DNA of 20,000 nt from Asterionella formosa (lineage: Eukaryota): NCBI GenBank assembly GCA_002256025.1, contig NKIB01012822.1:50030-70029 (forward strand), in the 5' to 3' direction. Position 1 is the stretch's first letter. Each line of letters begins with the position of its first letter. Of the stretch, positions 1-19,889 are shown piece by piece. The position numbers were made by a program, and so were the translations under genes. The notes below the pieces were generated by a model that did no database searches, had not been told where the DNA came from, and saw only the letters and a program-made list of their open reading frames with translations.

Positions 1-1486
1 GGGAGACGGCTTCAATCACAGAATTCAAGACGGCGGCTTCGTTTCCAGCAGAAATTGTTCGACTGTAATCAAACTGTGACAAGGGCTTGCCACGAGTATC
101 TTCAGGCGTCATTTGCATGAGTCTAAGGTATTCCAACAATTCCACAGGATAACGATCTGCATAACAAGGAAAGTCCACCATTTTGTCGCGTCCAGAGTTT
201 TCCAAGAATGCAATCTTCTCTTCAGCAAGTGGATCAACAGGTACATCCGTGTCAGCAATTTCCTTGACAAAAGATTCCGTTCTAGGTGCAATGGCAACTG
301 TCACATCTACAGAATTGAAAGGGTTTCGTTCCACAGCAAACCCGTACAGCAACAATAGGTCAGCATTCGACTTTGGTCCGTATGAAATATAAACTTGTTC
401 CATACGTCGGTATGATCGATCTGCGTAAAGAATGACTTCTTCGTCTCCTGTTTTGAACAACCAGTCTCCCGATTCGCGTGCATCGATGTAAGCTTGAGAA
501 AAGGGCGAATGATTGATCAGGTCAGCATATGGAACCATGGCAAGGGTTTCACCTTGACGTAGGTTTCGAAGACGAATTGCACGCGAAAACAGCATCGTGA
601 ATGCCCATGTCCAGTTTTCTCGAGAAAAAACCTGTAACGCAAACAAAACGGGATTAGAAAAACACATGGCCATCTTCAAGCCAATCCCTTCGTCCGCCGC
701 ACCTACCTCTGCGGGAAATCTCTCTGGGAACTTAGCAATCAATCCCGTCGGTCCACCAAGCAAGGCTTCATACTCACGCGCAAGCTTCATTTGAAGACTA
801 CGTGTCGCTGCAATAACCGGAGAACCTTCCAAGAATTTCAAGTCTTCGTCACTCCACGTAAAAGTCGGGTTGACTTCATCTATTTCTGGCAGCACTCCTA
901 CATATGCCTTCCAGTCCGATTTGTCTCCCATTAAGTACTTTTCATGAATCAGCTGACACGCAATGGCCAGATATTCGTTAATCTCGGCAGGCAGGGCATC
1001 CTTGCCAATCGCCTTGCGAGCCGACCTTTTCGTAAAGCACATGGACATTGGAATCTTCAGTAGCTCGTCTCCATCACTGACATCGCGTCGAGCCAAGAGT
1101 CCCCGACCAGAGGATTCGTTGGTAATTTCATCCCTCGTTTCCGTCGAAATGGCCATGGGATGAGGCGCTTCTCCCCATGCGGACATTTCGCTCAAATACA
1201 CCTCGCCATTCTCTTCCAGCCACTTGACCAGCTGAGCGTTGGCGGAAAGCTTCGGGTTGTCGACTCCGCCCTTCTTGAGGAGTCCCTTCATTTTCATTTC
1301 GGCTTCAAAGTCGCCGGGCAAAGCGCCGTTGGCATCATCTAGGGCCTTTAACCATTCGGATTCGCCGCCTTCTGCTCGAAGAAACGAGGAATATCTGGCG
1401 ATTCTGCAGCTGCGCGCCGGAGCGGAAAAGGCCGAAGCTGTGGAAAGCAACAAGACGATTGGGAGGACTCTGGATTCAACTCTCAT
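1..1486 (-). CDS. Plastid-targeted SET-domain lysine N-methyltransferase (Rubisco LSMT-like); 3' end lies outside the window. Exons 1486-707 and 631-<1
   Basis: Manual translation from ATG at 1486 gives MRVESRVLPIVLLLSTASAFSAP (signal peptide + ASAF motif), then GRGLLARRD, LLKIP, WKAYVGVLP, WAFTMLFSRA, LAMVPYADLINH and EQVYISYGPKSNADLLLLYGF. These are typical LSMT/SETD3-family SET motifs. The ORF track lacks it because the frame has no stop inside the window. Confidence 0.9.
   Translation of the reverse strand, partial: MRVESRVLPIVLLLSTASAFSAPARSCRIARYSSFLRAEGGESEWLKALDDANGALPGDFEAEMKMKGLLKKGGVDNPKLSANAQLVKWLEENGEVYLSEMSAWGEAPHPMAISTETRDEITNESSGRGLLARRDVSDGDELLKIPMSMCFTKRSARKAIGKDALPAEINEYLAIACQLIHEKYLMGDKSDWKAYVGVLPEIDEVNPTFTWSDEDLKFLEGSPVIAATRSLQMKLAREYEALLGGPTGLIAKFPERFPAEVGAADEGIGLKMAMCFSNPVLFALQVFSRENWTWAFTMLFSRAIRLRNLRQGETLAMVPYADLINHSPFSQAYIDARESGDWLFKTGDEEVILYADRSYRRMEQVYISYGPKSNADLLLLYGFAVERNPFNSVDVTVAIAPRTESFVKEIADTDVPVDPLAEEKIAFLENSGRDKMVDFPCYADRYPVELLEYLRLMQMTPEDTRGKPLSQFDYSRTISAGNEAAVLNSVIEAVS
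632..706 (-). other. Predicted spliceosomal intron (75 nt) in the SET methyltransferase gene
   Basis: Minus strand GAG|GTAGGT donor, CTAAT branch-like motif, pyrimidine-rich TTTTGTTTGCGTTACAG acceptor. Splicing joins ...RFPAE to VFSRENWTWAF. Confidence 0.75.
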
Positions 1487-1500
1487 CGTTCAGCGTCGTC

Positions 1501-1562
1501 AGGTCAGGTTAGGTCAGGACAGGACAGGACAGGACAGGACAGGACAGGACAGGACAGGACAG
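1501..1562. repeat. Pentanucleotide microsatellite (AGGAC)9 preceded by degenerate AGGTC/AGGTT units
   Basis: Read directly: perfect AGGAC x9 at 1516-1560. The array begins about 15 nt upstream of the SET gene ATG. Confidence 0.95.
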
Positions 1563-1689
1563 TGGGACATAGATGTATGTAGGGTATGTGGAGGCGAGAC
1601 GATGGAACAAGCATCAAGCAAGCGATGATGATTGAGACGCTTCGAAACCACCTGGCTCGATCATTCAACCGTACTGTTCGGTATCTGAA

Positions 1690-1819
1690 TACCGGCACCT
1701 GGTACCAGTACTGTCGTCATATATTTATAAACCTACTTACCGGTATGTATTGTGTAATGTTGCTTAGACAGATACTATACACTGGTGCCTGGTACCTGGT
1801 ACCTGGTACCGGTACCAGG
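1690..1819. repeat. GGTACC/(CCTGGTA)n palindromic motif cluster 1
   Basis: GGTACC at 1701, 1791, 1798, 1805 and 1811; TACCGGTA at 1738. Confidence 0.9.
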
Positions 1820-2071
1820 CAAGTTGCGGAAAAGCAATGAGAAATACAGCTATGTTTTCATGATAGTAAAAACCGTCTTTTACCGCAACTCCGTACAGGA
1901 CCTACATACATCATATCCTCATTATTGCTTCTTTCTGCCTGTACATCACCATACTTCGCGACGGTTCTGTTAGGCTACAAAAGTCAGTCCCCCTTGGTGG
2001 TGGCATGTGCTGGCTATTCTCAAATATTCCATTCGAATGATCCCAAACAAGCATTGGATTGAAGCCCCAAG

Positions 2072-2992
2072 ATGAAAGACATTGATCACATTCCGACGCT
2101 GACGGATGAAGAAAAGGATGATCTCTCCATCCAAGCGCACGATCAAGCAAAGGATGCAGTGGATGTGCTTGAATCTCCTGATGAACAGGACCACCATTCG
2201 GAAGAACTTTTTGCCGACACGTTTTCTGTGGGTGATCATGTCTACAAGTGGTACTCATTCGCTGGTATTCCCTACATGTCTCAACACCACGGGATTATTT
2301 GGGAAATGGACGAGAACACTTTGACTATTGCTGACTTTCACAACATGATTCGCAGAAATGAGGAGTACCCCAAATTCCTGGTGGTCTCACGTGGAAATTT
2401 ACGACTGACAGGGGACGAATCGGCCAAGAAATGGAATAAGGTGGAATATGATGCTTCATTATGGAAACGATCCCTGTGGAGATCAGGAACATGCACAGCT
2501 GCCAAGGCAGATCCGCCAGGATTAGTCATGGCTAGAGTACAATTTTTGATGGACATTGCAGACAAACTTCCCAACTTTCATTTTCTCAAGGCTAATTGTG
2601 AATGTGTAGCTGTATGGTGCAAAACAGGAACGTGGGCAACGCTTCAAGCTTCCTCCTTGCTGCATGCCGCTGCGGCTGGACAAGTGAAATCTGCGACAAC
2701 ATTGGCCCTCTTCGCGTCGTCACAAACAGTCGCTGTCCCATCCGCTGGGATATGGGGATGGTTGGGTTATACAACCAAAGTATCCTTAATGGCTACACAA
2801 CCATGGATTTTGCCAGCCCTTGCCGGATACGGGGTGGTGACAGTGGGTGGGCCAGTTTGGATTTTGGCTAGAGCCAAATCGTTTTGGAGCACTACGACAA
2901 CAAGATTAAATAAGGAGTTCTGGGAATCGGCAATTGATCGGCCCGAGTTGTTTGCGGAATGCATCACTGAATGGAGTCAGATAGAGACTTGA
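2072..2992 (+). CDS. LRAT/NC-domain protein (permuted NlpC/P60, HRASLS-like), 306 aa
   Basis: GDHVY...QHHGI H-box and NCEC NC-box. GTCTAAKADPPGLVMARVQFL resembles plant NC-domain proteins. The C-terminal part is hydrophobic and Ala/Gly-rich. Confidence 0.85.
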   Translation: MKDIDHIPTLTDEEKDDLSIQAHDQAKDAVDVLESPDEQDHHSEELFADTFSVGDHVYKWYSFAGIPYMSQHHGIIWEMDENTLTIADFHNMIRRNEEYPKFLVVSRGNLRLTGDESAKKWNKVEYDASLWKRSLWRSGTCTAAKADPPGLVMARVQFLMDIADKLPNFHFLKANCECVAVWCKTGTWATLQASSLLHAAAAGQVKSATTLALFASSQTVAVPSAGIWGWLGYTTKVSLMATQPWILPALAGYGVVTVGGPVWILARAKSFWSTTTTRLNKEFWESAIDRPELFAECITEWSQIET

Positions 2993-3423
2993 AAATATTA
3001 GCTAAAAGTTGTGGCTGAAATCAGCGGTATCACTCCCTAGGCGAGCCGAACGTTTTATCGGCTTGATGGAGAACAAGAAATCGCACAACTTGACCACGAT
3101 TAGGATTTGCTATTTCATTCATCGGCATGTATTGAATCGAGGTCAGGCATCTGATTGAAATTCTGTGATCAATTTCAAGTAAAGTCGAAAAATAGTAAGA
3201 CGAGGTTGTATACACGTTGCTATTTACGAATCTTGACATATTGTATCACTGATGCTGCTAAGGAAAGTTGATTCGAGCTAGTAAACCTGTTGTTGATGAG
3301 TACCGACTGTTAACTTCTTGCCCTATACCAGTATTCTTCTCTAATCAGAGGCACCTAAAAGTTGTGGAAGAAAATTTTTGTTAGTGGTTATTGGACATGC
3401 ACACTGGTTGTCATTGCTCAAAA

Positions 3424-5623
3424 TTATTCTTCAGAGTCTCCAGCCAAACCCAAATCCTTCAAGATCGTAAAACACCGCTCGCCTAAATCGTCAATGGCGG
3501 CATACTTGGCTGCGAGAATCCTTTCTTCAGCACGGCTCCGTGGCATCTTAGGTACACGCATAATGGCGGGACCACTTGGGACAAGAGCAAGGTTGGCTTC
3601 TGAAGCGAAACGAGCTGCCATTAGTGCTCTGGCAGTCATCTCGTCCTTTTTAGAGTCAGAGTGAACCTTGACCTTCTCAGAAGGTCGAGTCAATGCAGGT
3701 GCGACGACTGCTTCTACCTGCAGCGCCGCTTCCGCCTTTTGAACCATCTCTGCAAGTGCCCTGGCTTTCTCCGCAATTTGAGCTGCCTCTACACGAAAGT
3801 TGGCTGTCACAGCGTTTTGAGTGTCAAAAGCAAGCGATTTGGCCAGTTCAACCTTTCGATTTGACTCTGGAATCGTCGCTCTAACCACCATTGGTTCGGC
3901 CTTCATACCCATTGCAATAGCCTTAACCTCCTTTTCCCTTAGCTTCCTATCAAGGACTGTTAACATCTTACCTCCAGTTTCTGCTGCTAATTTAAGTTCG
4001 CGCTCCAAAGACTCTTCAGCAAGTTTCTCCATCAGTTCTTCATCAAAGCTCTCAGTGGCATATTTGACCTCCAATTTGGCATGCTCGGCCAAGAAATCGA
4101 AGACGATCGACCGAAGAATAGTAGTTTCGACTTTTCCGCGGATCATGGCTTCATCGATTTCCTCTCCTTTTGCATCTTTCTTAATGGCTTCAATCTGTTC
4201 TTCAATCTGGTAGTCAGGAACCTCAAGTCCTTCAATACGAGCAATCTCATCAGTGGCCATGGACACCTTGAAGTCCCTGACAATATCGTCCTTGACAATC
4301 TTCTTGTACTTCAAAAAATTCTCAGGTTTGATCTGTTTCTTGATTTCCTCATCGGGGAGACCATTATCACGCATTTCCGTCATCATCATGGCAAACTTTT
4401 CACGAGCTTGGTTTGTTACGAGAGTATCAGGAACTTCAACGTCCATAACTTTCGCCAAAGCAGCAGATAGGGCAGCATTGCGAGCACCAACATATTCCTT
4501 GGAATCTTCCGAGTCCACAGCTTTTCTAAGTTCGAGCGCGAGAGTTTCTGCAGTGAGACCAGGGCGGACCATGTTGGCAAATTCGTCCGTTACATCAGGA
4601 AGACTGCGGTGGGAGGCCTCTAGGATATCAACGTCAAAGATAGCCTTTCTGCCAGCAAGGGACTTGTCGCGAAGTATCTAGTTCAAATAATTGTTAGCAC
4701 ATCGCTTGAATGCAGATCATTGACAAATTACAGTGGCAAATGATTCTTACCATGGGGAACTCCACAGTCACAACACGAGATTCTCCAACCTTGGCACCGA
4801 CAAGACCTTCTACTAAACCCACCATGTAGCGTCCAGTGCCCAGTACAATTTCCACATTGTCTCCAGATGCTGCATTGGGAAGAGGATCTCCCTTGCTACC
4901 ATCATCTTTCGCCATGTATCCAACCATGTTGACACGACAGGCATCACCTATAGCCAAGATGCTACCTTCGGCGGCAGGCTGCAAGGTAGCATAACGTTCT
5001 CTTAAATCATTCATGGCCTTATCCATTTTCTCTTGGTTGAATGGCTTGCGTGAGTAAGATCCCGTTAAACCGTAGTATGGCTTGCCGCCGTTGTCTTCAG
5101 CCCACTGGATTTCTGGCCATACGTCGCACTTGACTAGGAGTTCGACGTCTTCCCCTGGACTAAAGGTTGCAGCAAGGTCTTCTACGGGAACAACAAGAGA
5201 AGGCTGCCCAATTGGCTCTAGACCATGTTCGTCCTTTAAGGCAGGCCCGATCAACTGCCCCAAAAGCGAATTAATAGCTTCCACTCTAAGGGCATACCTG
5301 CCTCCCTCCTTGCTTGACATGCACTGCTCCAAAACTTGCGGCGGAATCCGGGCCCCTTTACGAAAGCCCGGAACGACGAGTGTCTTGGAAAGCTCAAAAC
5401 ACGCCTTGTCATAGGCAGCTTGGGTGGCCTTGCCAGGGATCTTGAGAGAAATCTCTACGGCAGAGTCAGGGAGCCGACTCAAGGTTGAGGATCCCTCTGC
5501 CGCAACCCAGAGTTGCACGGCATGACGTGCAAAGGCTGGATGGCTAGGGCTAAAGGCGACGGCGCTGTTGGACGCGGCGAGGGCAACAACGAACGCAAGC
5601 GCGAAATTGGATATACGGACCAT
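3424..5623 (-). CDS. tig: Plastid trigger factor (ribosome-associated chaperone/PPIase), about 708 aa. Exons 5623-4751 and 4677-3424
   Basis: Signal peptide + SAVAF|SP presequence; ribosome-binding motif VPGFRKG; FKBP-like segment (LGTGRYMVGLVEGLVGAKVGE...FP, then LAGRKAIFDV); C-domain (VEVPDTLV, IARIEGLEV). One intron joins the two listed ORFs in frame. Confidence 0.92.
4678..4750 (-). other. Spliceosomal intron (73 nt) in the trigger factor gene
   Basis: ATG|GTAAGA donor, CTAAC branch motif and TAG acceptor. Splicing gives ...VEFPM-ILRDKSLAGRKAIFDV. Confidence 0.85.
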
Positions 5624-5954
5624 TTCTTCTTTCTTGAGAAGTGATGGATGTGACGGTAGTTACTATTGATGAGGATAGGACAGGGCGATAACAATAGCGA
5701 GAAGTAGACTTGTCTGTCTACTCAAGCAATGGAGATCTGTTCGAGTTTGTTGATGGCAAAGTGATCTGAAGACAACACCTCTATTACATATGTCATATCA
5801 TGACCCTCGCTTTGATGTTTCCTTACAAATAAAACAGATGGACGGACGCGGGCTGTATTCACATCCTAACATCATGCGTCACTCCCCGCCTCCTCCAGTG
5901 GTTACTCTACCAGTATAGCTGTATGGAGTTGTACAGTAAGTACACAACGAGACA

Positions 5955-6243
5955 GTACCTGGTACCTGGTACCCTGGTGCTGTACCAGGTACGTGTATGG
6001 TACTGGTACTAGGGAGTGAGCGATGGCAGCAGAGTTCAGGCCAGCCGCCCTACATACCAGGTACCGGCATACAACTCCCCATGTACAGTGTAGTAACCAT
6101 GACTATGTATCTATGTATTGATATACCGGTACCTGGTACCAGGTACCAGGTACACATTATCATAAGGTACGTATCGCCAGTTATCATGAGGGGTGGTCGT
6201 AATAAAATACATTTGTACAGGACTAACCTGGTACTGGAGTACC
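5955..6243. repeat. GGTACC/(CCTGGTA)n palindromic motif cluster 2
   Basis: GGTACC at 5961, 5968, 6060, 6128, 6135 and 6142; perfect 20-bp palindrome at 6128-6147. Confidence 0.9.
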
Positions 6244-6397
6244 ACAGAACAACTGACCTTCCGGTTCATGGCCGAATGAAGCAATTCTGAGGATTCATCC
6301 TGGATGATGGTGTAGTAGGAGAACATACTGGTACATATTATTACATAATCGTAGAGTGGAGGATCGTATTCATTCCATTGCCACAAATGATATCACC

Positions 6398-7327
6398 ATG
6401 AGCGCTTCCAAGGCTTTCCGCAGCCACTTGATGCAACAGTTCGCGGCTGTAGCTCGGACTCAAAGTCGCCCTCCACTAGCTTTGTCGTGTTCAAGCTCGA
6501 CAAGGCGCCATCAGACGAGCTCTTCATTATTGAACGTTTCTGATCTGTTGGAGCCAAGCACGTTTCAGTTTCAGCAGGCGAGCAAGAACGCAAGTTCTGC
6601 AAAGAGGCATGACGCAGTCGAGCAGGAACAAACAGGAAACGATCAGGAACAATCAAGAATCGATCAAGGCTTGGCAGAAGTCTCGGAAGCAGCATCAACA
6701 TTCCAGTCCACACTGTTATCTCGACGGACTATCTCTAACTTGACTCCTATCCCACCAGCCATGCTCAAGTCCTCGCTCGATCGAGCAATACTGTGTGCTC
6801 AAAATGCACCAAATCATAAGCAGACCGAACCCACCTTCTTCAAGCGAATTATATCGCCATCTCCAGCCATTGATACCCTAGCTCAGATTGCCTATAATGT
6901 CACATACAATAGGAAGTTGCAAAGGGATCCGGAAAATGCAAAACATTTAGCAACGAGGAAGCGAGACAAGTGGAGTCAAATACCAGCATATTTAGTAGTG
7001 GCCATCAAGAATCAGCCACCCCAATGTGTTGAGGATGAAGATCCATACCAAGAACTTGACTTTGTACCACCCAAAACAGAGTTGCAACTTGAAGACTATG
7101 CTTCGTCATGCGCTGCTACTCAGAACATTCTTCTAAGTTTGCATTCAGAAGGCATCGGAACAAAGTGGGCAACAGGACCAGTCATCAAGACAAGGTCCTT
7201 CCGCTCTTTGATTGGGTTGACCGATACCGATCGAGTGGTGGGACTCATTATGGTGGGAGGCATTGGGTTCAACCCCGCACCACGTAGGCGACGCCAGGAA
7301 TGGACAGACTCTGTTGAGGATTTGTAG
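6398..7327 (+). CDS. Nitroreductase-family flavoprotein, possibly with a mitochondrial presequence (309 aa)
   Basis: LLSRRTI, AQNAPNHKQTEP, EDYASSCAATQNILLSLHSEGIGTKWATG and VVGLIMVG match the YdjA-like nitroreductase fold. The N-terminus from ATG 6398 is Arg/Ser-rich and acid-poor. Confidence 0.88.
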   Translation: MSASKAFRSHLMQQFAAVARTQSRPPLALSCSSSTRRHQTSSSLLNVSDLLEPSTFQFQQASKNASSAKRHDAVEQEQTGNDQEQSRIDQGLAEVSEAASTFQSTLLSRRTISNLTPIPPAMLKSSLDRAILCAQNAPNHKQTEPTFFKRIISPSPAIDTLAQIAYNVTYNRKLQRDPENAKHLATRKRDKWSQIPAYLVVAIKNQPPQCVEDEDPYQELDFVPPKTELQLEDYASSCAATQNILLSLHSEGIGTKWATGPVIKTRSFRSLIGLTDTDRVVGLIMVGGIGFNPAPRRRRQEWTDSVEDL

Positions 7328-7992
7328 ACTTGTACAATTTTCTGAGAGGAATGAAGCAAAAAATTCTTGAACAGCATTGCAAAGACCGAAAAATGGGCAG
7401 TGACCAATTTCTGGGGATTTGCTTCAAATGAACCTAGGTTACTGTTGCAATTCCAAACTTCGCCATGACTACCGGTAAGGAGCAAACCAAGGCCATGATC
7501 GTGACACAAACTTCATTCCATGTTACCTATTACGAGGGAAGTGGAAGTAGAAGTAGAAGTGGCAACGAATTGAATTCGTTGGATGCAAGCGAAACTGGAA
7601 TAGCTTCTACGTTTGAGGCACAAACTGATCGCTACAGATTTTGAATTGTTACGTTGCACTGTCCATTATTCCAATCCGTTTAAGGAGCCATCCAATATCA
7701 GGAATAGGAGACTAGTGCAGATAGAGAAATAATCAAGTATTGATGCCTCGAATTCATTGCTAAACAACCATAGAGAATGTCAAATTGCTCCCTCATCATT
7801 TTTGGCGTCACAGCGATTAGAGTTCGTGTCATGTTGTTTGACCTAAACAATATAGGTGAAATTTGGTAACAACTACATCCATGATGCCGACAAAGCTATG
7901 TATTGTTCGTTAATTTATCTCGGAGCAAAATAATCCTTGTTTTCGATTTCTAAATTATACAACTCTTTCACTCTTTAGTCAATGACAGAGTC

Positions 7993-9954
7993 CTAATGAA
8001 ACGTTGGAATATCAGTAACCCAATCTGCTCTATCCGGTAGTTCATGATAAGCTTCCAACAAACGCTTGGTAATGTCGCCCATTTTACCACTTCCAATCAC
8101 GTGTCCATCAATCATAGTGACAGGTGTCAGCTCATCAAGAGTTCCAGCAGAAAACACTTCGTCCGCCGATAAAAATTCCTCCAACGGAATTCGCTTTTCC
8201 TCAGTTTCAAGTTCAAGTTCCTTGGCCAATTTCAAGACAGTCGATCGGGTAATATCATTGGCAGGAGGTGTCATCAACACACCATTCTTCACCATGAACA
8301 AGGAAGCCGAACTTGTCTGGCTAACATAGCCATCAATATCCAGCATGAGTGCATCAGCAACTTTCGCCTCGTTGGCTTGAATCTTAGGCAAGATATTGTT
8401 GATCATGTTGTGGTGACGAACATTTGGGTTCATGCATGCAGGAGAGCACCTTTGATCAGCCGTAATCAAAACAATACCGCTGGTGTGAGCGACTGGTTTC
8501 CATTCGGCAAGAACTATCAACGTCGTTCCATAGATATTGAAAGTCGGATTCATCGACGAACAAGACTTTTCGCCTCTGGTATGGCACGTGGATAGTTACA
8601 TGTGTGAGCACGAGATGATAAAACACAAAAAATCAATCGCAACAAAACTCCCTCCCCCGGCGACACCACAAACAACGTACCTGGTCAAAGTCACTTGAAT
8701 GTATACTCCATCCCGCATTCCGTTGGCTGCCAGCGTTCTAAAAATTGCTTCCTTCACTTCTGCCTTGGAATGCACAAGGTGTCCATTATGTCCAAATCCC
8801 AATGCCTCAGCTGATATGAATAAGCCATCTAAATGTTCCTCTAGCTCCAGTAGCTTGCCGTCATAAAGACGAATTCCTTCCCAGCAAGCATCTCCGCCTT
8901 GAACGGACGAGTCCCAAGGACTAACCGAGGCAAAGTCACGCGGGAGTAGCTGTCCCTTGCCCTGTGGCCCCCCGACCCAAACCAACAGTCGCATGTTGTC
9001 AGGGTTCTCATGCACTGTCGTTCTTCGGGCACGACTTGTCAAGGACTTGAGGTAGAGGTAGGCCGGCATCGATGCCGTCAGCGCGTCAATGTAAATGGGA
9101 TCAACGGATCGGTATCGTCGTTGCGGTGTCATTTTATTTTCTTGCACCCAACCGCTCGACTTGTGCAGGTCCTTGTACCACCACGGGGCCCAGGGTCCAT
9201 CGCATTCGTGAGGCCCACTCTCCCAGGTCAGCATCTCGGTTGTCCAAGGAATTTCAAGTTCACTACACAGAGCCGCGAGTGTTTGCTCCGGATCCGACAC
9301 AATGTCGTCCGAATCCAAAAAGACCATTTTGCTCTTGGATGCCGGACGCTTGGAGTAGATTCCCAACATGGGTACGATTCCCACTTGTTCAATCGATACA
9401 GTATTTCCGTGCACTTCGCCGTTGACTCCCCAGCTGGAAAGGACAGCAACGGGATCGCGGAGCAACAAGACGTGCTTATGAACGATATGCACTGTTTCAT
9501 CAGGATTCTCCAACACGGACACTCGCTCTACCTTATCTTCTTCGAACATAGTTTCTTGCTTCGCCAAATGCTTGACAAAAACCACACCTTCTGGCTGGTT
9601 CTTCAGCTTGGAAATGGCACTTTCAATTCGAACAGTAAAATCCAATAATTCCTGAGGCCACTTCCACTTATCACATTCTGCAGTCCCGACAGGAGGAATG
9701 CCGGCAATGAATTCGTCACGATAAGGCCGCAGCATGTCGGATTTAGATTTGTGAAACAAGCGAGACAGGGGTTCATCAATCGCCACACAATCCGATCGAG
9801 CTTCAAAGCTGTAAAGTAGGGCGGTGGAGCGCGAGCGAGGAGCTGACCAGCAGTGAATAACGGTGACATTACGCGTCGGGACATGAGGTTCCGCACAGTC
9901 CCCCGAGGCAACGGTGGAAGCGATTGACGATTCGTCGGTTGAATTTGGCGACAT
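7993..9954 (-). CDS. Branched-chain aminotransferase-like fusion protein: N-terminal sulfotransferase-like domain + class IV aminotransferase domain, about 618 aa. Exons 9954-8681 and 8575-7993
   Basis: N-domain: WSAPRSRSTALLYSF, DEP, FVKH, LLRDP, MLTWESGP, DGPWAPWWY. C-domain: DSSVQGGDACWEGIR, LTRG (across the intron), DALMLDIDGYV, ITR, ADEVF, IDGHVIG. This architecture is known from plant BCAT-like proteins. Confidence 0.88.
8576..8680 (-). other. Spliceosomal intron (105 nt) in the BCAT-like gene
   Basis: AG|GTACGT donor and CAG acceptor. It contains the in-frame TAA at 8596-8598. Splicing restores TLTRGEKSCSSMNP. Confidence 0.85.
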
Positions 9955-10253
9955 GATTATCGATTTGGCTGGACTGCAATGAAAAATAGTTGTGTTGCGC
10001 ACAATTGTTGAATTCAGATAATACCGCTATATGTGGCTGGGTGAAGTTTGAGATCTTGTGTGGGCGGCCATATAGAAATGGTAATATGAAAGCCTTGTTT
10101 GGGAGGTCTAAATTTTCCGTTCCCCTACCATCAGTAATACATATTCCAGTTCCACTCAACTCTTGCCATACTCCCTATGTAGTCTACTATGTAGCATCAA
10201 GATTCGCTCGGAGCTCACAATCCGCCGCAGCCAACAAATCTACCTGTGTAAAC

Positions 10254-10810
10254 TACCAGGTACCGGTATCTGGATTCTGTACATTCGAATATATTTGGTG
10301 CTGTATGTATGTATATACCGGTATAACATGTAAAAGCAAGCGACAAGAATGCCGGTGTCAAGCATGATGTATAGCAACCGGTATATACATAGTAGTAGTC
10401 TACCGGTACGTACAGTACCCAAAAATACAATTATCTACACGGCCATTATAAATCGAGGTATGGTACCAGGTACTGTACCAGGATACCAGGTACCTGGAAT
10501 GTATGTACCGGTAGTTCTCGGAGTACCAGGTACCCGGGTACTTTAGCTCCGTACCAGGTATGTACGGTAATACTAGACTCTACCGGGAGACTGCCATGTA
10601 GATAAGGAAAAACATAAATAGACTACCGGGTAAAAGTGGTACCAGGTACTACGTAAACTATATGTATCCGGAGGAGCACCAGGCACAACCACATAAACAT
10701 TTCTATCGTGTTTCCCTTACCGTGGGTGGTATCAAAGCAACAACTGTCGTTCTATTCCACACCTCACGTTCCGGTAGTCTACCAAGTACCAGGTACCAGG
10801 TACCTGGCAC
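10254..10810. repeat. GGTACC/TACCAGG/TACCGGTA motif cluster 3 (the largest)
   Basis: Many copies, e.g. TACCAGGTACCGGTA at 10254, TACCGGTA at 10316 and 10401, a dense run at 10461-10560, and GTACCAGGTACCAGGTACCTGG at 10786. Confidence 0.9.
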
Positions 10811-11099
10811 AATTCCGATAGATTACATACCTTTAAGGCCGTCAATTCTGCTCATTGGATAGTGCATTACTAACAATGGACGAGCGAGTGATTTCAAGGT
10901 TCCATTGTCTGAAATACCGAATAATGAGAAATTCTAGATTCCAGTTGGTTCATGGAGCAAATTACCGTATGTTCAGTACGATCCTATTTTTATGTAACGT
11001 AAATTGTGCTTCATCATAATCATAAGGGATCTATACTACTGTCAATGATGTTGATGATTGATTTGTCCATCGCAGAATAGTTCAAAAGCAACCGCTAAA

Positions 11100-11777
11100 A
11101 TGTCAGGACGTGGAGGAAGAGGAGGAGGCAGAGGTGGTGCGTACAAGGCCCCCACAGGCGGTCAACTATTTTTGCAACGATCGGCTCAAGAGTGTGGCCT
11201 AGACGATCGCAATCTGAAAACACTTCAAGACATTACCAGACCTTCGCTCTTCCCACCCTTTGAATGGCATTCGTCGGGATCGTCTGAAGTTGATGCTGAT
11301 GTCAAAATTCGACCTACCTACAATACCTATCTCATTCGCAAAGGACGTGATATAACTCATCGAATGCAACAATCGCCTTGTTATTTACGACCCACACAAG
11401 AAGTCGATGTGTTACGGTATCGCAAGAAGCGTCAGCGAAGACCATGTGATATGGCAGTCTTGGAATATTTAGGGCATGCTGCCAGCAAAGAATATATTCC
11501 AGATGAATTGCTAGGAAAGAAACCAGTAGCGAGGGACATGAACAACAACGACTTGCTGACGACCGACAACATGTCCTTGGAAGAGTTGGCTGCAATGGAA
11601 CTCCTCAAGTCGAAGGAAAAGGAAGACGGAGAAGAAGGCGAAGAAGAGGAAGATGTTGATGATGATGGTATGTTTGAGAAAGAGGAAGAAGATGAGGAAG
11701 CGGAGGATTATGTTATGAATCACTATGAGAGTGAAGGCGATGAAAGTGATGGAGGGGATGACGAGCCCACGTTTTAG
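11100..11777 (+). CDS. RPC31: RNA polymerase III subunit C31/RPC7 (POLR3G-like), 225 aa
   Basis: N-terminal MSGRGGRGGGRG, then PSLFPP, SPCYL, DVLRY and YIPDEL. The very acidic C-terminus contains DYVMNHY and ends in EPTF. This layout is characteristic of RPC7/C31. Confidence 0.8.
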   Translation: MSGRGGRGGGRGGAYKAPTGGQLFLQRSAQECGLDDRNLKTLQDITRPSLFPPFEWHSSGSSEVDADVKIRPTYNTYLIRKGRDITHRMQQSPCYLRPTQEVDVLRYRKKRQRRPCDMAVLEYLGHAASKEYIPDELLGKKPVARDMNNNDLLTTDNMSLEELAAMELLKSKEKEDGEEGEEEEDVDDDGMFEKEEEDEEAEDYVMNHYESEGDESDGGDDEPTF

Positions 11778-11983
11778 GTTCCTTTGAGTTGAAAGTGCCA
11801 TTGACCCGATATCTAATCTAGAATGATTCCTGTTGATACGCGATGATGATGGTTGTACTAAAATTACGTCCCGAGACTAACTATAGAGGGCTATTTAAAA
11901 TTTAAATTAATTTATAGTGCCATCGGTATAGTTGAGTTTCATTTCGATGCTCAACTACTTCCCCGGTCAGAACAAACTTTGCT

Positions 11984-12595
11984 CTAGGCCAACATCAAAG
12001 CTTCAATACCGTCAATCACTTTGCCCACTGTTACTTGCGACGACCACAGCACCACTAAGGCACCAATGCCTGCCTTAGGTAGTCCAAATCGAGCAACTTT
12101 CATACCCAAACCCACATAGGACAACGGAAAGAGAAATCCTTGCAAATAGCCCATCGCAAGATCTTCATCAATTAAGGAAACCTGGTCGTCATTAAGTCGC
12201 GTACCGTCGATCTTGAGGATGGGCAAGGAATAATAAAGTGCAGCCACAACAGCGTACAAAATCAGTGACCCATTCTTCACAAGCTTGGCGACTTGCTCCG
12301 ACTTGGACTTACGAGATGCCACTAGTTTCGCTAGCTCTTTTTCTTTCGACAGCACTTGTCGCTCCAGTTTCGAGGTTTCCACAAAGGCAGAAGGGCCTAA
12401 ACGACGCTTTTGAGCAGCTTCGAAATTAAGTTGAACCAGAAGTTGTTCCGCTGTTTTCTCTGTTGGTGATTTCGATTTGGCTGAGAAAGAAAGTCCTCTA
12501 GAAATAATTTCTAAAACTACTCCGATGCAAAGAAGTGACCAGATGTCGAAAGGACGAATCTCCAACAGCGGAATGGCTTGATGCGGCACGACCAT
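11984..12595 (-). CDS. GET1: GET1/WRB-like tail-anchored protein insertase subunit (203 aa)
   Basis: N-terminal TM helix, then a coiled coil containing SAFVETSKLERQV (compare the GET1 'F..(W/Y)AKL.R' segment), then two more hydrophobic segments with FPLS and IGALVVLW. Confidence 0.6.
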   Translation of the reverse strand: MVVPHQAIPLLEIRPFDIWSLLCIGVVLEIISRGLSFSAKSKSPTEKTAEQLLVQLNFEAAQKRRLGPSAFVETSKLERQVLSKEKELAKLVASRKSKSEQVAKLVKNGSLILYAVVAALYYSLPILKIDGTRLNDDQVSLIDEDLAMGYLQGFLFPLSYVGLGMKVARFGLPKAGIGALVVLWSSQVTVGKVIDGIEALMLA

Positions 12596-12782
12596 GGTGA
12601 AAGAGAGCGATGATATGCTGTTATAATATGCTACTCGGAGTATTATCTACCGGTACATGCTTGCATCATGAGAACGATGGCCGAGGATGGCGGGGGGATT
12701 GAACAGCCATCCTCAGTCATAAGAAATCAGCAGACTATAACGCTATGCATACCTAGCTCCAGGGGCGTGTGCCATTATAGTC

Positions 12783-12905
12783 CACCGGAGTACCGGTATA
12801 ACAGGTACTGGTACTGGTACTGGTACCTGGTACCAGAGGACCCTGATGTTGGTTTTGCTAAGCTACCTAGTGTACCACGTACCAGGTACCGGTTCATACC
12901 GGTAC
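12783..12905. repeat. GGTACC motif cluster 4, including a (GGTACT)n hexamer variant
   Basis: TACCGGTA at 12791, GGTACTGGTACTGGTACTGGTACCTGGTACCAG at 12804-12836, and GTACCAGGTACCGGT at 12879. Confidence 0.9.
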
Positions 12906-12999
12906 ATACATGCCTGACGACTTTCATCGCTTGCAAAGCAAACACCAGGAACGGAATCCAGAATACGTTTGCCTGATGCTTCATCCATCTCGAAATAGT

Positions 13000-15050
13000 T
13001 CTTATATAAAGCATCACTATTACACTTGTTTTGGAAATTTTGCTACTAAGAACCTCCTCAATCGAAATTATTTTACCAATTTGAAACTCTGCCTATAAAC
13101 TGCTACTAGCCTACTCTAAGTAATTTTTGATCATTCTTTGTTGCTTACAAATCTGAAACAACTTTCCAGCTGTAGCTGAGAGCATGTACCAGTACTAGGG
13201 CTACTCTATGTGTGAAGGAGTTACTGGTACACAGTCAATTGTCGTATGTCCAATATAGTGATGTGAAAGTGTCAATCAGCAGATTTCAAAACAGCAGTTT
13301 ACCACATCCTTGGAATATGCAGTAACATGTAACCCCTCTGTTCCGCCAGTATAGCTGAAACATGCTCAGTGGCTAACCCAACTTCATCCAATTCCTTTTA
13401 AGAAGCCCTCTGTAGAAGCAATATACATTTTGGGCGAGTCCATTGAGGGACTCTTTTGGGTTGCAGACTAGGAAACAACCATAGTGATGGTAAGCAAGAG
13501 CAAGGCTCCCACATAAGGCGGCTCTTAGAGTGTGTGTAGACGAGCCAACAATGTAGGTAGGAACTGATGGCGGAGAGGAAGTCCAATCAAGAAGTAGAAA
13601 GGAAGTATGGAAACTGCATGGCCATTTTGGGAGAAACATTTCAAATGAGAGCTGGAATTGGAGAATCAATTGAAGTGGTACTAGTAGCCTGATGAAGATA
13701 TAAGGTGACGAGAGCAAGAGAAGGGTCTTGAGAGACGCAGAAATTATATGGCAAACTGTATTGCCATTTCGGTGAATTTAAATTTGAATTATAAATCCTG
13801 GCAGGCGATTGCCAGGATGAAATGTAGGACAGAATGGTCTTGAGGGCTGTGAGGAGTGCTGCTGTTGCTTTGGGGTGGTTGACGCCAAGGTAAGACAGTG
13901 AGCTTCTTTGTAGCAGTAGTGTCAAGGGAGTCGGCCAAGGTGTAATTGGAGTAGAGGGACTAAATGATCGCTTTTCGTTGTTGTGGACCGAAGCGGCGAA
14001 TGGGGTCAAGAGTGGTGGTCGGAGGGTCAGAGGAGTGAGATAGGGTAAAATAGATGACATTTCAATGGAATCATGCACCCAGCCAAGCGTGGCTTTCCGG
14101 TTTTGAACGAAGTTGCAAATGTAGACTTGGAGTATTTGCGAGAGGATTTGCATGCTGAGGGATGAACAGGATTGAAGGAGACAGTTTCAGCCAGCCATAG
14201 GAATATCAGGAGGAACAGGAGTGGGAGCAGCAGCAGCATGGGTGGAGCGAAGCAAAGCACCATGGTCAAGGATGACTAAAGCATCAGCAGCGCCATGGGA
14301 ACGGCTGTAGGCTGTCTATCAGAGTAGTATAATTAATAGAGGGCAAGTTAGCTACCCCAACAGTTCAATGTTGCATTCTTGTTGAAAAATTAGTAATCAC
14401 AAAGATACACATTGTACTTTCAACATAGTCAGGATAAACCCTGACAATGACAAGCTACTGGTACTAATGAATTCTTCTATTAGTACCTAGTTTCTGTGAG
14501 TCATAGGCGGTTAGTACAAGCAAGACTGCAGAAAAAAATTATATTGTGTTCGAGACATAGTAAGCAATATCAAAACTTTCGATTGGGTCCTCAGGTGACC
14601 CTTCTTTCCCAGACTAGATCAAACAGGCGAATCTAGATTAATTACCATTAGCTCAATCTTTTTAAATCTATGAATTTTAGTAGGGCTGATGGCATAGGCA
14701 GCAAAGGACAGAACAAGAATCAAAGACTAGAATGTTCGTTGGGCTGACCCAGAAAATGTACACAAATAGCAGAATTACTGGACCTTCCTGGTGATGTTGG
14801 TCCAAAAGCAAACTCTATTGCTGTTGTTCATATGCTGATACGTCTAGAGTACTACCAGTATGTAGAGAAACAGCTAGCTGACAACAGTACCAAGGGAATA
14901 ACTGCCAATGCCTTGTTTGAGAGATTGAAGGAGGAGGCAATACACTCCAGGAGGGCAACACAAAGAATGGGATAACCCCGATCAAAAGGTTTCTCCAGCA
15001 CTCCTGTTTTGCGTTCTTACCTCTAGTTGCCTTTCGTTTTTTGCTTAGCT
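13000..15050. other. CpG-depleted block with broken ORF remnants; possible degraded transposable element or foreign insertion (boundaries approximate)
   Basis: Only 2 CG dinucleotides in 13081-13380, versus 9 in the 120 nt of gene sequence at 1021-1140. Fragmented ORFs at 13373-14269 (-). No TE domain was recognised. Confidence 0.4.
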
Positions 15051-15077
15051 CTTTTTTGCTTTTACTTGCTACACATC

Positions 15078-15200
15078 CCGGTAGGTACCTGGTACCAGGT
15101 AGTACTACCTACACTCGACTTGACATCGACCGAGGGTCGTCTATTTAAGGTACCTGGTACCAGGGTACCAGGTACCTGGTCCCCTGGTTCTCCTACCAGG
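15078..15200. repeat. GGTACC/(CCTGGTA)n motif cluster 5
   Basis: GGTAGGTACCTGGTACCAGGTAG at about 15080 and GGTACCTGGTACCAGGGTACCAGGTACCTGGT at about 15149; a further TACCGGTA at 15361. Confidence 0.9.
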
Positions 15201-15615
15201 TCCAGTCGTGTCGTATACCAATTTTTCGGGTGGAATGTATGAAAAATATTCTTTTCTTCCTTTGGAGTTCCCTGTTGGGCTTCAACACAAGCAGGTGGGG
15301 GCGAGGTTTTTAAGAGTACAAAGGTAGAGTACTATGATGAGTGGGGTCCGGACACATCCATACCGGTACTCGGAGGCAAGAACGACACCACCTCTACTTC
15401 GGGTGTTTACGAGTTACTCCGACTACCATTGTATTTGGTGTCAACAAAACGCGATATGATTCCTTTTGATTTATCTTGAATGTCGCACGACATTGCTCTC
15501 TGAAACCCTTCCTACATTGAGGAGCTCCGAAGATGACTGCCTCCTTGAAGCGCATAGAAAACTCATTTTGCGAAGCATTCGTTCATAACGATCCCACGAA
15601 TACAGCAGTGAGAGG

Positions 15616-16476
15616 TTGTCTTCGTCAATAGTGTCGTTATCCTCAGCGACATCCTTATTTCCGCCATCCTCCGCTTTGTTCGTCAACATACACAGTCTCC
15701 ACTGGGAATCTCCATGGAACATGGCTCCTGTCTCTCCATATCTTCGCCGCTTGAATGCAGGAAGCAAGCAAAATGAAGTGGGTTGGCTCGTTTTCGACAA
15801 GCCAAAAACAAGAAACACCAGTACCCCTGCATCGTTGCAGACTTTCGCACTTCCAGTCTTGGCCAAGGCATTACCTGACTACATTGAAGCTAACGGAGTG
15901 CAGGCTGTCAGAGATGTCATGGGGCTCTTGCCGAGTGATTCACTAGCAGCTCTTTCGATTATTTGTTCCGAAATGGGAATCATGTCCCTGAATATTATGG
16001 CGGTCCTTTGCCATTCGCATGCACAGCGACTGGCCGTGTATTTCCAAGAAACTGTGCATGAAGAGGATTGGATTTCCATTGTTTCTCTTGATACTTCTCA
16101 TGACTTGGAACGACTTGAGTTGGTCAATGTCAGTATTTCAAATCGTGGCATCGTGACGTTGATCCGACTGGCCCCGTCGCTTATTCAATTGTCTCTAAGT
16201 CGATCAAAAATCACAGGGGCTAGCATTGACTTTCTTCCTCTCTTCCAAAATTTGCATGTTCTGGATATCTCCCACTGCGATTGGATAGAAGAAGATTTTG
16301 TCAGAAAGTTATGTCCAAAAGCGAGCAATCTGCAGCTCATTAGCATGCACCACTGCCAGCATCTGGGAGCTCTTGATCTCATTATTGCTTTAAATTTCTA
16401 TACTCGGGGACATCCTGTCTGTTCCATAAAGCTGCAAAGCAAGGAGAGATCTTATTCCTGGGAGGGTTTCAAATGA
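15616..16476 (+). CDS. Leucine-rich repeat (RNI-like/AMN1-type) protein; true start uncertain (first in-frame ATG at 15721)
   Basis: LERLELVNVSIS, LIQLSLSRSKIT, LHVLDISHCDWI and LQLISMHHCQHL are LxxLxL-type repeats. PASLQTFAL precedes them. Confidence 0.65.
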   Translation: MSSSIVSLSSATSLFPPSSALFVNIHSLHWESPWNMAPVSPYLRRLNAGSKQNEVGWLVFDKPKTRNTSTPASLQTFALPVLAKALPDYIEANGVQAVRDVMGLLPSDSLAALSIICSEMGIMSLNIMAVLCHSHAQRLAVYFQETVHEEDWISIVSLDTSHDLERLELVNVSISNRGIVTLIRLAPSLIQLSLSRSKITGASIDFLPLFQNLHVLDISHCDWIEEDFVRKLCPKASNLQLISMHHCQHLGALDLIIALNFYTRGHPVCSIKLQSKERSYSWEGFK

Positions 16477-17519
16477 TTGGATGTGGCTCCAATCCAGTTA
16501 TTGACAGAGACGAAGGAAGCAGGATTGTATTATGGTTTGATCTGCTGCAATCGACTTTGAATTTTGAGAACACTTGTATGGTGTTACCTATTCTCAATCA
16601 GCGTATTTCCACATTCCATAAAATTGGGCTTGCTTGCTGTTTACCAGCGCAAAAATGGTGTTGATTGCTTCACCTGCACATGATGGAAAGAATTTTTGTT
16701 GTATGTTAGGCTCTTCGATTATACTTCAAGTTGACCATTGGTGCCTTGTACCGTCCATTGATAGCATTGACGCTGAAAGAGGAGTTTTTCATTAATCGCA
16801 ATGAACAAAAAATCAGACCAATACAAGAACAAAGTAAAACATGATAATTTTCTGTGGAGTACATCTTTTTATCATTAACATTTTTCAATTACATGCAGTA
16901 ATCTGAGAGGGAAGGTCCATTTGAAGCATACTTCCCATACAATTTTTCTGGAAACTCTTGCCTTGCAGCATTGTGTGGCATTCTTTTGTACCATAAAAGC
17001 AAGGGTATCATATGCTTGTTTTGATTTGATGTTCAATTTGATAATGCAGTCTTCTTTCACTCTTCAACTTATGATTCTTAAGGGAAGCTATAGTATAGGT
17101 GCAGCAATAATACTGAAATATCTGATGCAAATGAGGTAAATCGAATGAACCTATATTATTATTGTGAGCTAGAACAACAATCGATTCCAATCCCTAGTTG
17201 GAAAAATTGAACAGATTTAAAGGCTCATATTTGAGTGGAAACCAGAAATTCAATATTATTCCGTCATTTCAGCCAGAATAGAAAGCACAAGCCAACCATA
17301 AGTCCTGCACGTTTTGACAGGCACTACCGCTAATATCTTGAACCTCCTGACGTCAACATTCATCTAAATTTCTACACTAAACACATCTGGTTATACTCAA
17401 CAAAAAATGCAGTAGCTTGAAAGGTCGTATTGTACACAAAGCCAGGGGGGAATGCTTCCAACTGATTTCGTGCTGTTTCAACTCTAACAACAGACATCAA
17501 CAGTTAATTGATGCTTATA

Positions 17520-18416
17520 TTATCTTGTCCCCTTTTCTTTCATTGCTTTTGGCAACTTGACAGAAACAAGCATATCATTCTTTATTTTTTTCATTCGACC
17601 CTTGATATTGATGACTGTAAACTCGTTATTCCTCTCGTGTAGCTTACCCTCAATAGTCTTGTTCGTCTTTTTCTTCGGGTCCATAAAAGTAACTAAGACA
17701 TCAAATCCCTTGTATGCTCTAAACATTACTGGCCCTTGTAGCTCATCGGAGGCTCCTGGTGTAGTGACTTCAATTTCGTGGGCCTCCGCAATCGCCAAGC
17801 CTACGCCGCCGTCATCAAATGCAATATTAATGGCTCTAGCCAGTGCCGAAATGTCAACGCCTCTTGGTTGAACTCCTTCGCTTTCGAGTTCAATGCTAAC
17901 TTCTGAAAAGGTGCTATCGTTAATTGCGGCGTTTCCGTCTGCAGCAATGTCGTCGCCTTGAAAAGTTCCATCATTATCTTCATCATTGTCAAAATCTGCT
18001 TCCTCTCCATCGTCGTCAACATCGTCACTCTCGTCCTCATCGGTGTATTCTAACTCAATATCGTCATCGCCATATATCTCCTCCTCGTCTTCACCACTGC
18101 TTTCAACATCAGAAACGTACACGTCTCCATGAACTGTGATAACGACGCGCCCACCCTTCCATTCAATCTTTAAGTTGTCTTCACTTGCCCCACATTGACG
18201 CGCAGCCTCCAGAATAATGTCATTCCCGACTTCTTGATAGTCAACAGGCAACAGGGCAAATAGATGAGTCACTAACGGTCTCCTTGAGAGGAAAGGATGA
18301 TAATTCGTCGGCCAGGCAACAGATGACGGCACTAGAACAAAGAGGACGAGAGCTGGTGACAACACGCACCACGAAAAAAGGACGGAGAAGAGTGAATAGT
18401 AGTAGTTGCAACGCAT
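17520..18416 (-). CDS. rimP: Plastid-targeted ribosome maturation factor RimP-like protein (298 aa)
   Basis: IEVTTPG..DEL (compare LEVSSPG..RPL), FRAYKGFDV and TIEGKL are RimP motifs. The hydrophobic signal peptide ends SSVA|W and is followed by a transit-like segment. Confidence 0.85.
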   Translation of the reverse strand: MRCNYYYSLFSVLFSWCVLSPALVLFVLVPSSVAWPTNYHPFLSRRPLVTHLFALLPVDYQEVGNDIILEAARQCGASEDNLKIEWKGGRVVITVHGDVYVSDVESSGEDEEEIYGDDDIELEYTDEDESDDVDDDGEEADFDNDEDNDGTFQGDDIAADGNAAINDSTFSEVSIELESEGVQPRGVDISALARAINIAFDDGGVGLAIAEAHEIEVTTPGASDELQGPVMFRAYKGFDVLVTFMDPKKKTNKTIEGKLHERNNEFTVINIKGRMKKIKNDMLVSVKLPKAMKEKGTR

Positions 18417-18529
18417 TCTGTGATAGCTATAGATTTGCCAACTTAAAATGATGCCGAGCGAAGAAAGGACTCGACCTTACACCCACATAGGTAGTGAGAG
18501 TGAGTGTAATGGAACCAAGTATTTCAGAG

Positions 18530-18812
18530 AACCAGGTACTATACTGGTGCTTTTGCGACTGCGATGATTTTTAATTACATAGTAAATGTACAGATTGTTG
18601 GATCAGAAACGTACTACCTGGTCTACCCTGGTACCAGTATTCCATATATGATACCGGTATTCGACTGATATACCTATACCGGTATGAATTCTAGTATTAT
18701 CGTCTGGTGGATGGTTCCAGACCAGGGTGGTATACCATATGCACTTCCTGTACGATGAGGATCATGATCAGACAGCCTGATCAGGTTATGCCAGTGCGTA
18801 TTGTATACCGGT
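18530..18812. repeat. GGTACC/TACCGGTA motif cluster 6 (looser), upstream of rimP
   Basis: ACCAGGTAC at 18531, CCCTGGTACCAG at 18626, TACCGGTA at about 18652, 18677 and 18805. Confidence 0.75.

Positions 18813-18857: not shown

Positions 18858-18859
<2 letters not shown>

Positions 18860-18889
<30 letters not shown>
18860..18889. repeat. (CAT)10 microsatellite
   Basis: Read directly. Confidence 0.95.
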
Positions 18890-18893
<4 letters not shown>

Positions 18894-19849: not shown

Positions 19850-19889
19850 GTTCTGCTCTGTTCTGTTCTGTTCTGTTCTGTTCTGTTCC
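19850..19889. repeat. Pentanucleotide microsatellite (GTTCT)n, 8 units including 2 variants
   Basis: GTTCT GCTCT (GTTCT)5 GTTCC. Confidence 0.95.

Follow-up and report, generated by a model that had tools for sequence, protein, structure and literature searches.

The subject of this work is a short palindromic DNA word, best written TA-CC(W)GG-TA, which is iterated between the genes of a stretch of 20,000 nucleotides from Asterionella formosa (contig NKIB01012822.1, positions 50,030 to 70,029), referred to here as the window. The window has a G+C content of 45.5% and is eukaryotic, and its DNA also occurs in runs labelled as lake, freshwater or algae metagenomes. Nine genes, defined from open reading frames (ORFs), Pfam matches and RNA contigs, were used in the analysis. 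These genes strictly alternate in orientation (-,+,-,+,-,+,-,+,-) over positions 1-18416 of the window, which means that the spacers between them are alternately head-to-head and tail-to-tail. Gene pairing as strict as this is uncommon over a distance of 18 kb and agrees with the sharing of bidirectional promoters. Six clusters of the word, which had been located by a first-pass annotation and were recovered here at the same coordinates, lie upstream of these genes (Table 1).

Table 1. Genes, clusters and single sites of the window, and orientation of the Pfam-validated genes next to arrays at other loci (UTR, untranslated region)
Feature	Position	Strand or setting	Content	RNA contig ends
Gene A	2-1486	-	SET/Rubisco-LSMT-like	
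Gene B	2072-2992	+		
Gene C	about 3200-5623	-	trigger factor	5688-5694
Gene D	6398-7327	+	nitroreductase	6357-6467
Gene E	7993-9954	-	sulfotransferase plus class IV aminotransferase	9913-10042
Gene F	11100-11777	+		10758, 11033, 11114
Gene G	11984-12595	-		12556-12707
Gene H	15721-16476	+	LRR	15248-15346
Gene I	17520-18416	-		18520-18572
Cluster 1	1690..1819	head-to-head spacer A(-)/B(+)	TACCGG, CCTGGTACC, TACCGGTA, array 1788-1819	
Array of cluster 1	1788-1819		CCTGGTA x3, then CCGGTACCAGG; Tandem Repeats Finder period 7, 5.1 copies; 16-bp DNA hairpin, z -5.7	
Cluster 2	5955..6243	head-to-head spacer C(-)/D(+)	arrays 5955-5973, 6124-6153	
Scattered sites of cluster 2	5982-6010, 6055-6067, 6227-6243			
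Single TACCGGTA	7470..7477	tail-to-tail spacer D/E	sole full site outside 5' regions	
Cluster 3	10254..10810	head-to-head spacer E(-)/F(+)	largest, 19 sites; four lone TACCGGTA, array 10786-10808	
Solitary TACCGGTA	12648..12655	53 nt upstream of gene G ATG	in gene G RNA contig, probable 5' UTR	
Cluster 4	12783..12905	upstream of gene G(-)	(GGTACT)3, GGTACCTGGTACC, TACCGGTA at 12791 and 12897	
Cluster 5	15078..15200	upstream of gene H(+)	arrays 15084-15101, 15149-15180	
Solitary TACCGGTA	15361..15368	inside gene H RNA contigs	probable 5' UTR	
Cluster 6	18530..18812	upstream of gene I(-)	lone TACCGGTA at 18652, 18677, 18806; CCTGGTACC; half-sites	
Genes at other loci		pointing away from array	L014R, L016L, L024R, L033R, L035L, L038L, L040L, L045R, L047L, L061R, L062R, L071R, L078R	
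Genes at other loci		pointing towards array	L014L, L018L, L051L, L064L, L069L	

Three forms of the site, whose minimal unit is TACC(W)GG, were distinguished in the marked-up sequence of the window: the lone perfect 8-mer TACCGGTA, the 9-mer TACCWGGTA, and tandem (TACCWGG)n runs with a shared TA. Since tandem neighbours have one TA in common, GGTACC hexamers arise at the unit junctions. This hexamer, which had at first been taken for the building block, is indeed overrepresented, with 28 copies, where 200 dinucleotide shuffles gave 2.38 on average (maximum 7, none of the 200 reaching 28), and all 28 copies fall within the six clusters. Nevertheless, it represents the junction between units and not the unit itself. 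In the window, the TACC half-site is paired at two spacings, with either 0 or 1 bp in between, and the site has at its core a CG or CWG, symmetric and embedded in CCGG or CCWGG. Tandem Repeats Finder reported period-7 arrays together with one period-6 array (2.7-5.1 copies, 81-94% matches), and the alternation of A and T at the unit centre produces longer palindromes in several of them. As single-stranded DNA the arrays fold into hairpins of 8-16 bp, with energies of -7.4 to -16.9 kcal/mol, which were better than those of shuffled sequences in four of the five arrays tested (z -2.9 to -5.7), the fifth giving a z of -1.45.

The distribution of the site over the window is markedly uneven. The full site, TACC[W]GGTA, was found 37 times in the 5' spacers (6513 nt) and once in the 3' spacers (2345 nt), and no copy was present in the genes, introns included (10441 nt of the window), whereas shuffling of the 5' spacers gave a mean of only 0.23 and a maximum of 3. 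As the sites of one array are not independent of each other, the test per spacer is the conservative one: three or more sites were present in all five 5' spacers and in none of the four tail-to-tail spacers (Fisher p = 0.008), which were free of arrays, as the first-pass annotation had maintained. In terms of length, the words of the motif make up 5-14% of the 5' spacer sequence and 0-1.2% of the 3' spacer sequence. The 8-mer TACCGGTA has 15 copies in the window, 14 of them in 5' regions, including those at 12648 and 15361, slightly beyond the limits first given for the clusters, and the remaining one in the tail-to-tail spacer at 7470. One half-site, GTACCTGG, was also seen at 8677, within the intron of gene E. 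A coding origin of the window arrays was excluded, these being located outside ORFs and RNA-supported genes.

With respect to the genes, the distance from the cluster edge to the nearest ATG is 114-521 nt, in agreement with the few hundred bp originally proposed. Moreover, in the three clear head-to-head spacers the clusters occupy the middle and, the word being a palindrome in such a position, the description of the element as independent of orientation could be upheld. The same applies to the view that it does not belong to a particular pathway, since the genes flanking the clusters encode, among others, a SET/Rubisco-LSMT-like protein, a trigger factor, a nitroreductase, a sulfotransferase-aminotransferase fusion and an LRR protein. 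The promoter-associated family of repeats or sites in diatoms is real and statistically solid, and apparently undescribed.

To our knowledge, diatom promoters are poorly understood. In the literature searched, which covered neither subscription journals nor supplements, no description of this site was found in diatoms or elsewhere, nor of any general upstream element of diatom promoters. The array strings GGTACCTGGTACC and GGTACCAGGTACC returned nothing but primers, and the matches of TACCGGTA and GGTACC among the papers listed were primers, barcodes and KpnI cloning sites. Likewise, a term search of the main text of a Phytophthora binding survey (PMC11267843) gave no GTAC, CCGG, GGTA or TACC string, and no bZIP of such specificity came to light.

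Transcript ends were taken as the ends of assembled RNA contigs and not as mapped 5' ends, so the distances are approximate; on this basis, the contigs of genes C, D, E, G and H stop about 48-261 nt short of the cluster edges. The depth of the contigs over the clusters was not used as evidence, since it sums the contigs of other loci which share array words and is not the measure of one transcript. The RNA contigs also contain many false joints between clusters. No match to known RNA families was obtained with Rfam.

The element is present at many other loci, as had been anticipated. In the four RNA runs, many foreign contigs agree with an array over 20-22 nt before passing into unrelated sequence (24 loose ends listed, and 295 more). 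In addition, metagenome contigs were scanned for three consecutive units, which gave at least 124 stretches, and 123 loci, each with about 2 kb on either side of the array, were analysed; the counts that follow refer to these listed loci. A G+C content of at least 55% was found in 35 of the 123; in 21 of these 35 the 20-mer falls within an ORF of 150 aa or more, and the group as a whole has only 0.14 further sites per kb. These high-GC, bacteria-like loci (e.g. L001, L023, L030, L037 and L073) were set aside as unrelated coding repeats, their 20-mers presumably being in-frame peptide repeats separate from the diatom element. The other 88 have a lower G+C content, and at a distance of over 60 nt from the seed 37 of them have three or more additional sites (overall 1.85 per kb). 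These low-GC loci encode diatom-typical proteins, such as light-harvesting, DUF6824 and HA domain proteins. One of them, L014, encodes an endonuclease V whose named homologues are all from diatoms, the best being that of Seminavis (54%). Nearly all sites of the low-GC loci belong to the W type (421 vs 41), a type which the seed itself favours; in the window, the figures are 23 of the W type and 15 without W. The element is, therefore, present in at least two lineages of diatoms. Matches between the window and these loci are confined to the arrays, the longest being 49 nt, and when all loci were compared with one another only six pairs aligned, four being overlapping or identical stretches and two being related regions. 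Among 2.9 million viral contigs there was no match to the array.

In the multi-array loci, the Pfam-validated genes adjacent to arrays point away from them in 13 cases and towards them in 5 (Table 1), and the nine loci with ORFs on both flanks comprise four divergent, five tandem and no convergent arrangements. As regards the initial claim that arrays mark 5' flanks exclusively, it held in the window (5/5 vs 0/4), but strict exclusivity found no support across organisms (L020, maybe L015). The 5' association is thus a strong tendency in diatom-like multi-array loci and no absolute rule. At L035 (1-1149, 1968-2110) a copia-type gag/zinc-knuckle ORF is preceded by an array, and the word may thus also be present in the retrotransposon promoters of these diatoms.

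Regarding the genes themselves, short GT..AG introns at 629-703, 4678-4750 and 8576-8680 were confirmed by RNA contigs. In the trigger-factor gene all four RNA runs splice 3352 to 3970 (GT..AG, minus strand) and, since 617 nt (3353-3969) are removed even though the ORF reads through, the ORF-based end of gene C at 3424 is probably wrong, the true 3' exon being about 3198-3352. Gene E is an unusual fusion of a PF19798 sulfotransferase and a PF01063 aminotransferase, in one transcript across the intron 8576-8680. The named homologues of gene D are all from diatoms (among them Amphora, Seminavis, Skeletonema and Cyclotella) and about 40-45% identical, the best unnamed matches reaching 55-58%, while an atlas search with gene I gave a weak RimP-like match only (score 0.82). 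The translations of genes A and C show signal-peptide junctions of the ASAF/SAP and AVAF/SPS type, which we take to be typical of diatom plastid targeting. Between clusters 4 and 5, the stretch of 2.2 kb at 12906-15077 is covered by RNA contigs in some runs; it has no ORF longer than 181 aa, no Rfam match, and no Pfam match on the single ORF tested (13641-14153), and it may give rise to a non-coding transcript or harbour a gene of several exons that escaped recognition. Other microsatellites share the 5' regions, namely (CAGGA)12.6 in the gene A leader (1500-1562), (TCA)11 at 18859-18891 and (GTTCT)7.8 at 19850-19888, and the RNA contigs break at all three.

As far as can be judged from sequence, the clusters may well be self-expanding putative binding sites of a dimeric general promoter factor, a reading to which we give about an even chance. 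It is considered the likeliest because the isolated exact 8-mers far exceed what composition would produce, because one half-site is used at two spacings, and because a neutral repeat should fill 3' spacers and introns as well. Moreover, the lone copies of TACCGGTA (15 in total, against about 0.2 expected for both site types in the 5' spacers) argue for a discrete recognised word and not for pure expansion. In such a mechanism, a putative lineage-specific DNA-binding dimer would accept its TACC half-sites either directly joined or separated by 1 bp, and would keep the shared upstream region open or activate the genes on both sides. New copies of the site would come from replication slippage, and selection would retain the cluster of each promoter, not any single array. 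SBP (GTAC core), Grainyhead (AACCGGTT), AP2 and bZIP proteins can be named as candidate factors by resemblance only. A bolder version, put forward tentatively, is that some diatom lineages possess a lineage-specific and near-universal promoter word, which slippage multiplies and through which a dimeric general factor is brought to nearly all promoters, bidirectional ones especially. If this were true, it would constitute a self-renewing promoter code, in which the copies turn over fast and the cluster persists, and no general promoter element would have been defined in diatoms before it.

Several observations weigh against the dimeric-factor reading. The metagenome loci were picked with a three-unit seed and are, hence, biased to arrays. 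Three more Pfam-validated genes, at more than 1.1 kb, point towards arrays (L010, L043 and L045), and a crude count based on ORFs only gave 43 pointing away and 28 pointing towards the array, a noisy figure which includes single-array loci of other organisms and some double counting. At L015 a truncated peptidase-M3 ORF ends directly at the array, which may be intronic, and at L020 (643-876), on a contig of 47% G+C not assigned to an organism of origin, an MCM and a Pho88 gene converge on a single array, with their 3' ends on either side of it. The transcription of some sites also belongs here, since the solitary copies at 12648 and 15361, the array 10786-10808 (one contig), cluster 1 (one contig, 1569-2656) and the first half-site of cluster 6 (gene I contigs) are all included in RNA contigs. 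Furthermore, the 5' spacers are broadly rich in GTA/TAC, with GTAC enriched 8.6-fold, GGTA/TACC 6.8-fold and TACATA 25-fold, surroundings which would suit a compositional or structural reading.

The same is true of the turnover and spacing of the arrays. The loci L049 and L063 represent the same region in two close relatives, with 96.5% identity over 282 array-free aligned positions, and arrays present in one are absent in the other as indels of 17-26 nt. The motif columns of this alignment contain 30% gaps and 30% mismatches, compared with 16% and 12.7% in the other columns (for the gaps, Fisher p = 3e-6), and each locus still holds several arrays. In this one pair, on which the test of array conservation rests, single arrays are not conserved between relatives, and the notion of a fixed code, advanced in the first-pass annotation, is not supported. 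In addition, centre-to-centre distances between sites peak at multiples of 7 up to 70 nt (the peaks at 7 and 14 being partly forced by the seed), with no helical phasing of 10-11 nt in the site spacing, and a 7-nt register of this kind indicates repeat ancestry and not placed sites. One RNA contig (depth 9.9, run X10) also has an extra TACCGG unit behind 15109, so that cluster 5 varies in length by one unit within the natural population. The arrays, therefore, grow and shrink by whole units, and arise and decay by slippage, in the manner of a microsatellite.

These features bring other explanations into consideration. The enrichment of GTAC, GGTA and TACATA over the whole 5' spacer, beyond the exact site, would be in line with a structural element working without any protein, in which step tracts (GG/GT/TA/AC/CC) and palindromes disfavour nucleosomes, or extrude cruciforms when transcription supercoils the DNA, and thereby keep the shared promoter open. 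Sequences of the d(GGTATACC) type are classic A-form formers and poly(dA:dT) excludes nucleosomes in yeast; also, four of the five arrays form better hairpins than their shuffles, and copy number would be free to vary if it were the bulk sequence that mattered. However, the 15 lone exact 8-mers are hard to derive from bulk properties, the fifth array is no better than its shuffles and the stems are short for cruciform extrusion, and we regard this explanation as possible but unlikely. Slippage on its own could also be responsible, if a neutral 7-mer microsatellite family prone to it gathered in open promoter DNA, as far as selection and chromatin permit, and had no role there. The period-7 tandem arrays with their register up to 70 nt, the gain or loss of whole arrays between near-identical contigs, the one-unit TACCGG insertion at 15109, the further microsatellites in the same spacers and the convergent array of L020 all speak in favour of this idea. 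Nevertheless, a neutral repeat should also populate 3' spacers, so its absence from 2.3 kb of tail-to-tail spacers and from the window introns, set against its presence in all five 5' spacers, counts against neutrality. The same word, moreover, prevails at many loci in at least two diatom lineages, and perfect palindromes also occur isolated, outside arrays; a purely neutral origin is judged improbable.

The sites which fall inside RNA contigs (12648, 15361, array 10786-10808 and cluster 1) could suggest a role at the RNA level, with arrays being transcribed into 5' UTRs or upstream transcripts and acting there as hairpins, and in RNA libraries the array-bearing contigs of other loci have depths in the hundreds. 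Such depth at shared repeat words is, however, the sum of many loci; most clusters are not reached by the RNA contigs of genes C, D, E, G and H, Rfam offers no match, and a symmetric palindrome central in bidirectional spacers is better suited to recognition as DNA, all of which makes an RNA element very improbable. In either type of site the central C(W)G is symmetric and could be methylated, and on this feature of the sequence alone CCGG/CCWGG might be conceived as a target of cytosine methylation serving as a methylation-dependent epigenetic mark. Diatom methylation, however, is mostly found on repeats and transposable elements, not on promoters of expressed genes, and all the flanking genes are expressed here, as judged from RNA contigs, for which reason methylation seems a highly improbable function. 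A possible identity of the clusters with the ends of one transposable element family had been raised at the outset, and the array beside the copia-type gag ORF of L035, as well as the 2.2 kb without a clear gene bracketed by clusters 4 and 5, might be quoted for remnants or termini of transposable elements or of miniature inverted-repeat transposable elements (MITEs). Nevertheless, no locus matches the window past the arrays (at most 49 nt), flanks are common only to overlapping records and two related pairs, the region 12.6-15.7 kb is flanked by array-derived repeats only, and the viral contigs contain no match. Given the unrelated flanks, the lack of any terminal inverted repeat (TIR) or long terminal repeat (LTR) around clusters 4 and 5 and the negative result with viral contigs, an origin from a transposable element family was rejected, and it is hardly credible as an explanation.

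Should the clusters indeed be sites of a dimeric general factor, one word at each 5' spacer would provide a handle on the factor opening or activating diatom promoters. It would also give a simple sequence rule for the annotation of promoters and gene orientation in diatom metagenome contigs, and the element would represent a natural case of slippage-born regulatory sites with fast turnover. Even if they were neutral, the arrays would still mark open promoter DNA and strain variation.

Comparison with known systems helps to place the element. Its first-pass likening to HIP1 (GCGATCGC), a hyper-abundant cyanobacterial 8-bp palindrome with a methylatable centre that is spread genome-wide, coding DNA included, could not be sustained, since the diatom site is eukaryotic, forms tandem arrays, is located in 5' spacers and is absent from 10.4 kb of genes. 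Two spacings of one half-site are known from bZIP dimers, which bind CRE (TGACGTCA) and TRE (TGASTCA), although this likeness is one of architecture only, half-site spacing differing by one bp between TACCGGTA and TACCWGGTA. The yeast Reb1 site (TTACCCG) and those of human NRF-1 and GABP in bidirectional promoters lie in the nucleosome-depleted region of divergent genes; these occur as one or a few copies per promoter, whereas the diatom site forms self-overlapping arrays. In Drosophila, the DNA replication-related element (DRE, TATCGATA) is bound by DREF and BEAF-32, and GAGA factor binds (GA)n. Like the diatom site, these are an 8-bp palindrome or a short repeat, found at unrelated housekeeping promoters and between head-to-head genes, which behave as general promoter or boundary elements and are not pathway-specific. 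The diatom site differs from them in its word and lineage, in its overlapping period-7 arrays and in being much less stable.

As to instability, Vinces and colleagues are said to have described, in 2009, unstable tandem repeats in yeast promoters. Unstable promoter repeats have been proposed to tune promoter chromatin and expression. Microsatellites of human promoters are dealt with in PMC3566118. Both the yeast and the human repeats consist, likewise, of short tandem units in promoters whose copy number differs between relatives, but they are heterogeneous in sequence, while the diatom element consists of one palindromic word family in each 5' spacer, together with lone exact copies. By analogy, the element would seem to behave most like these unstable promoter repeats and like the sites of DRE/GAGA or of yeast general regulatory factors.

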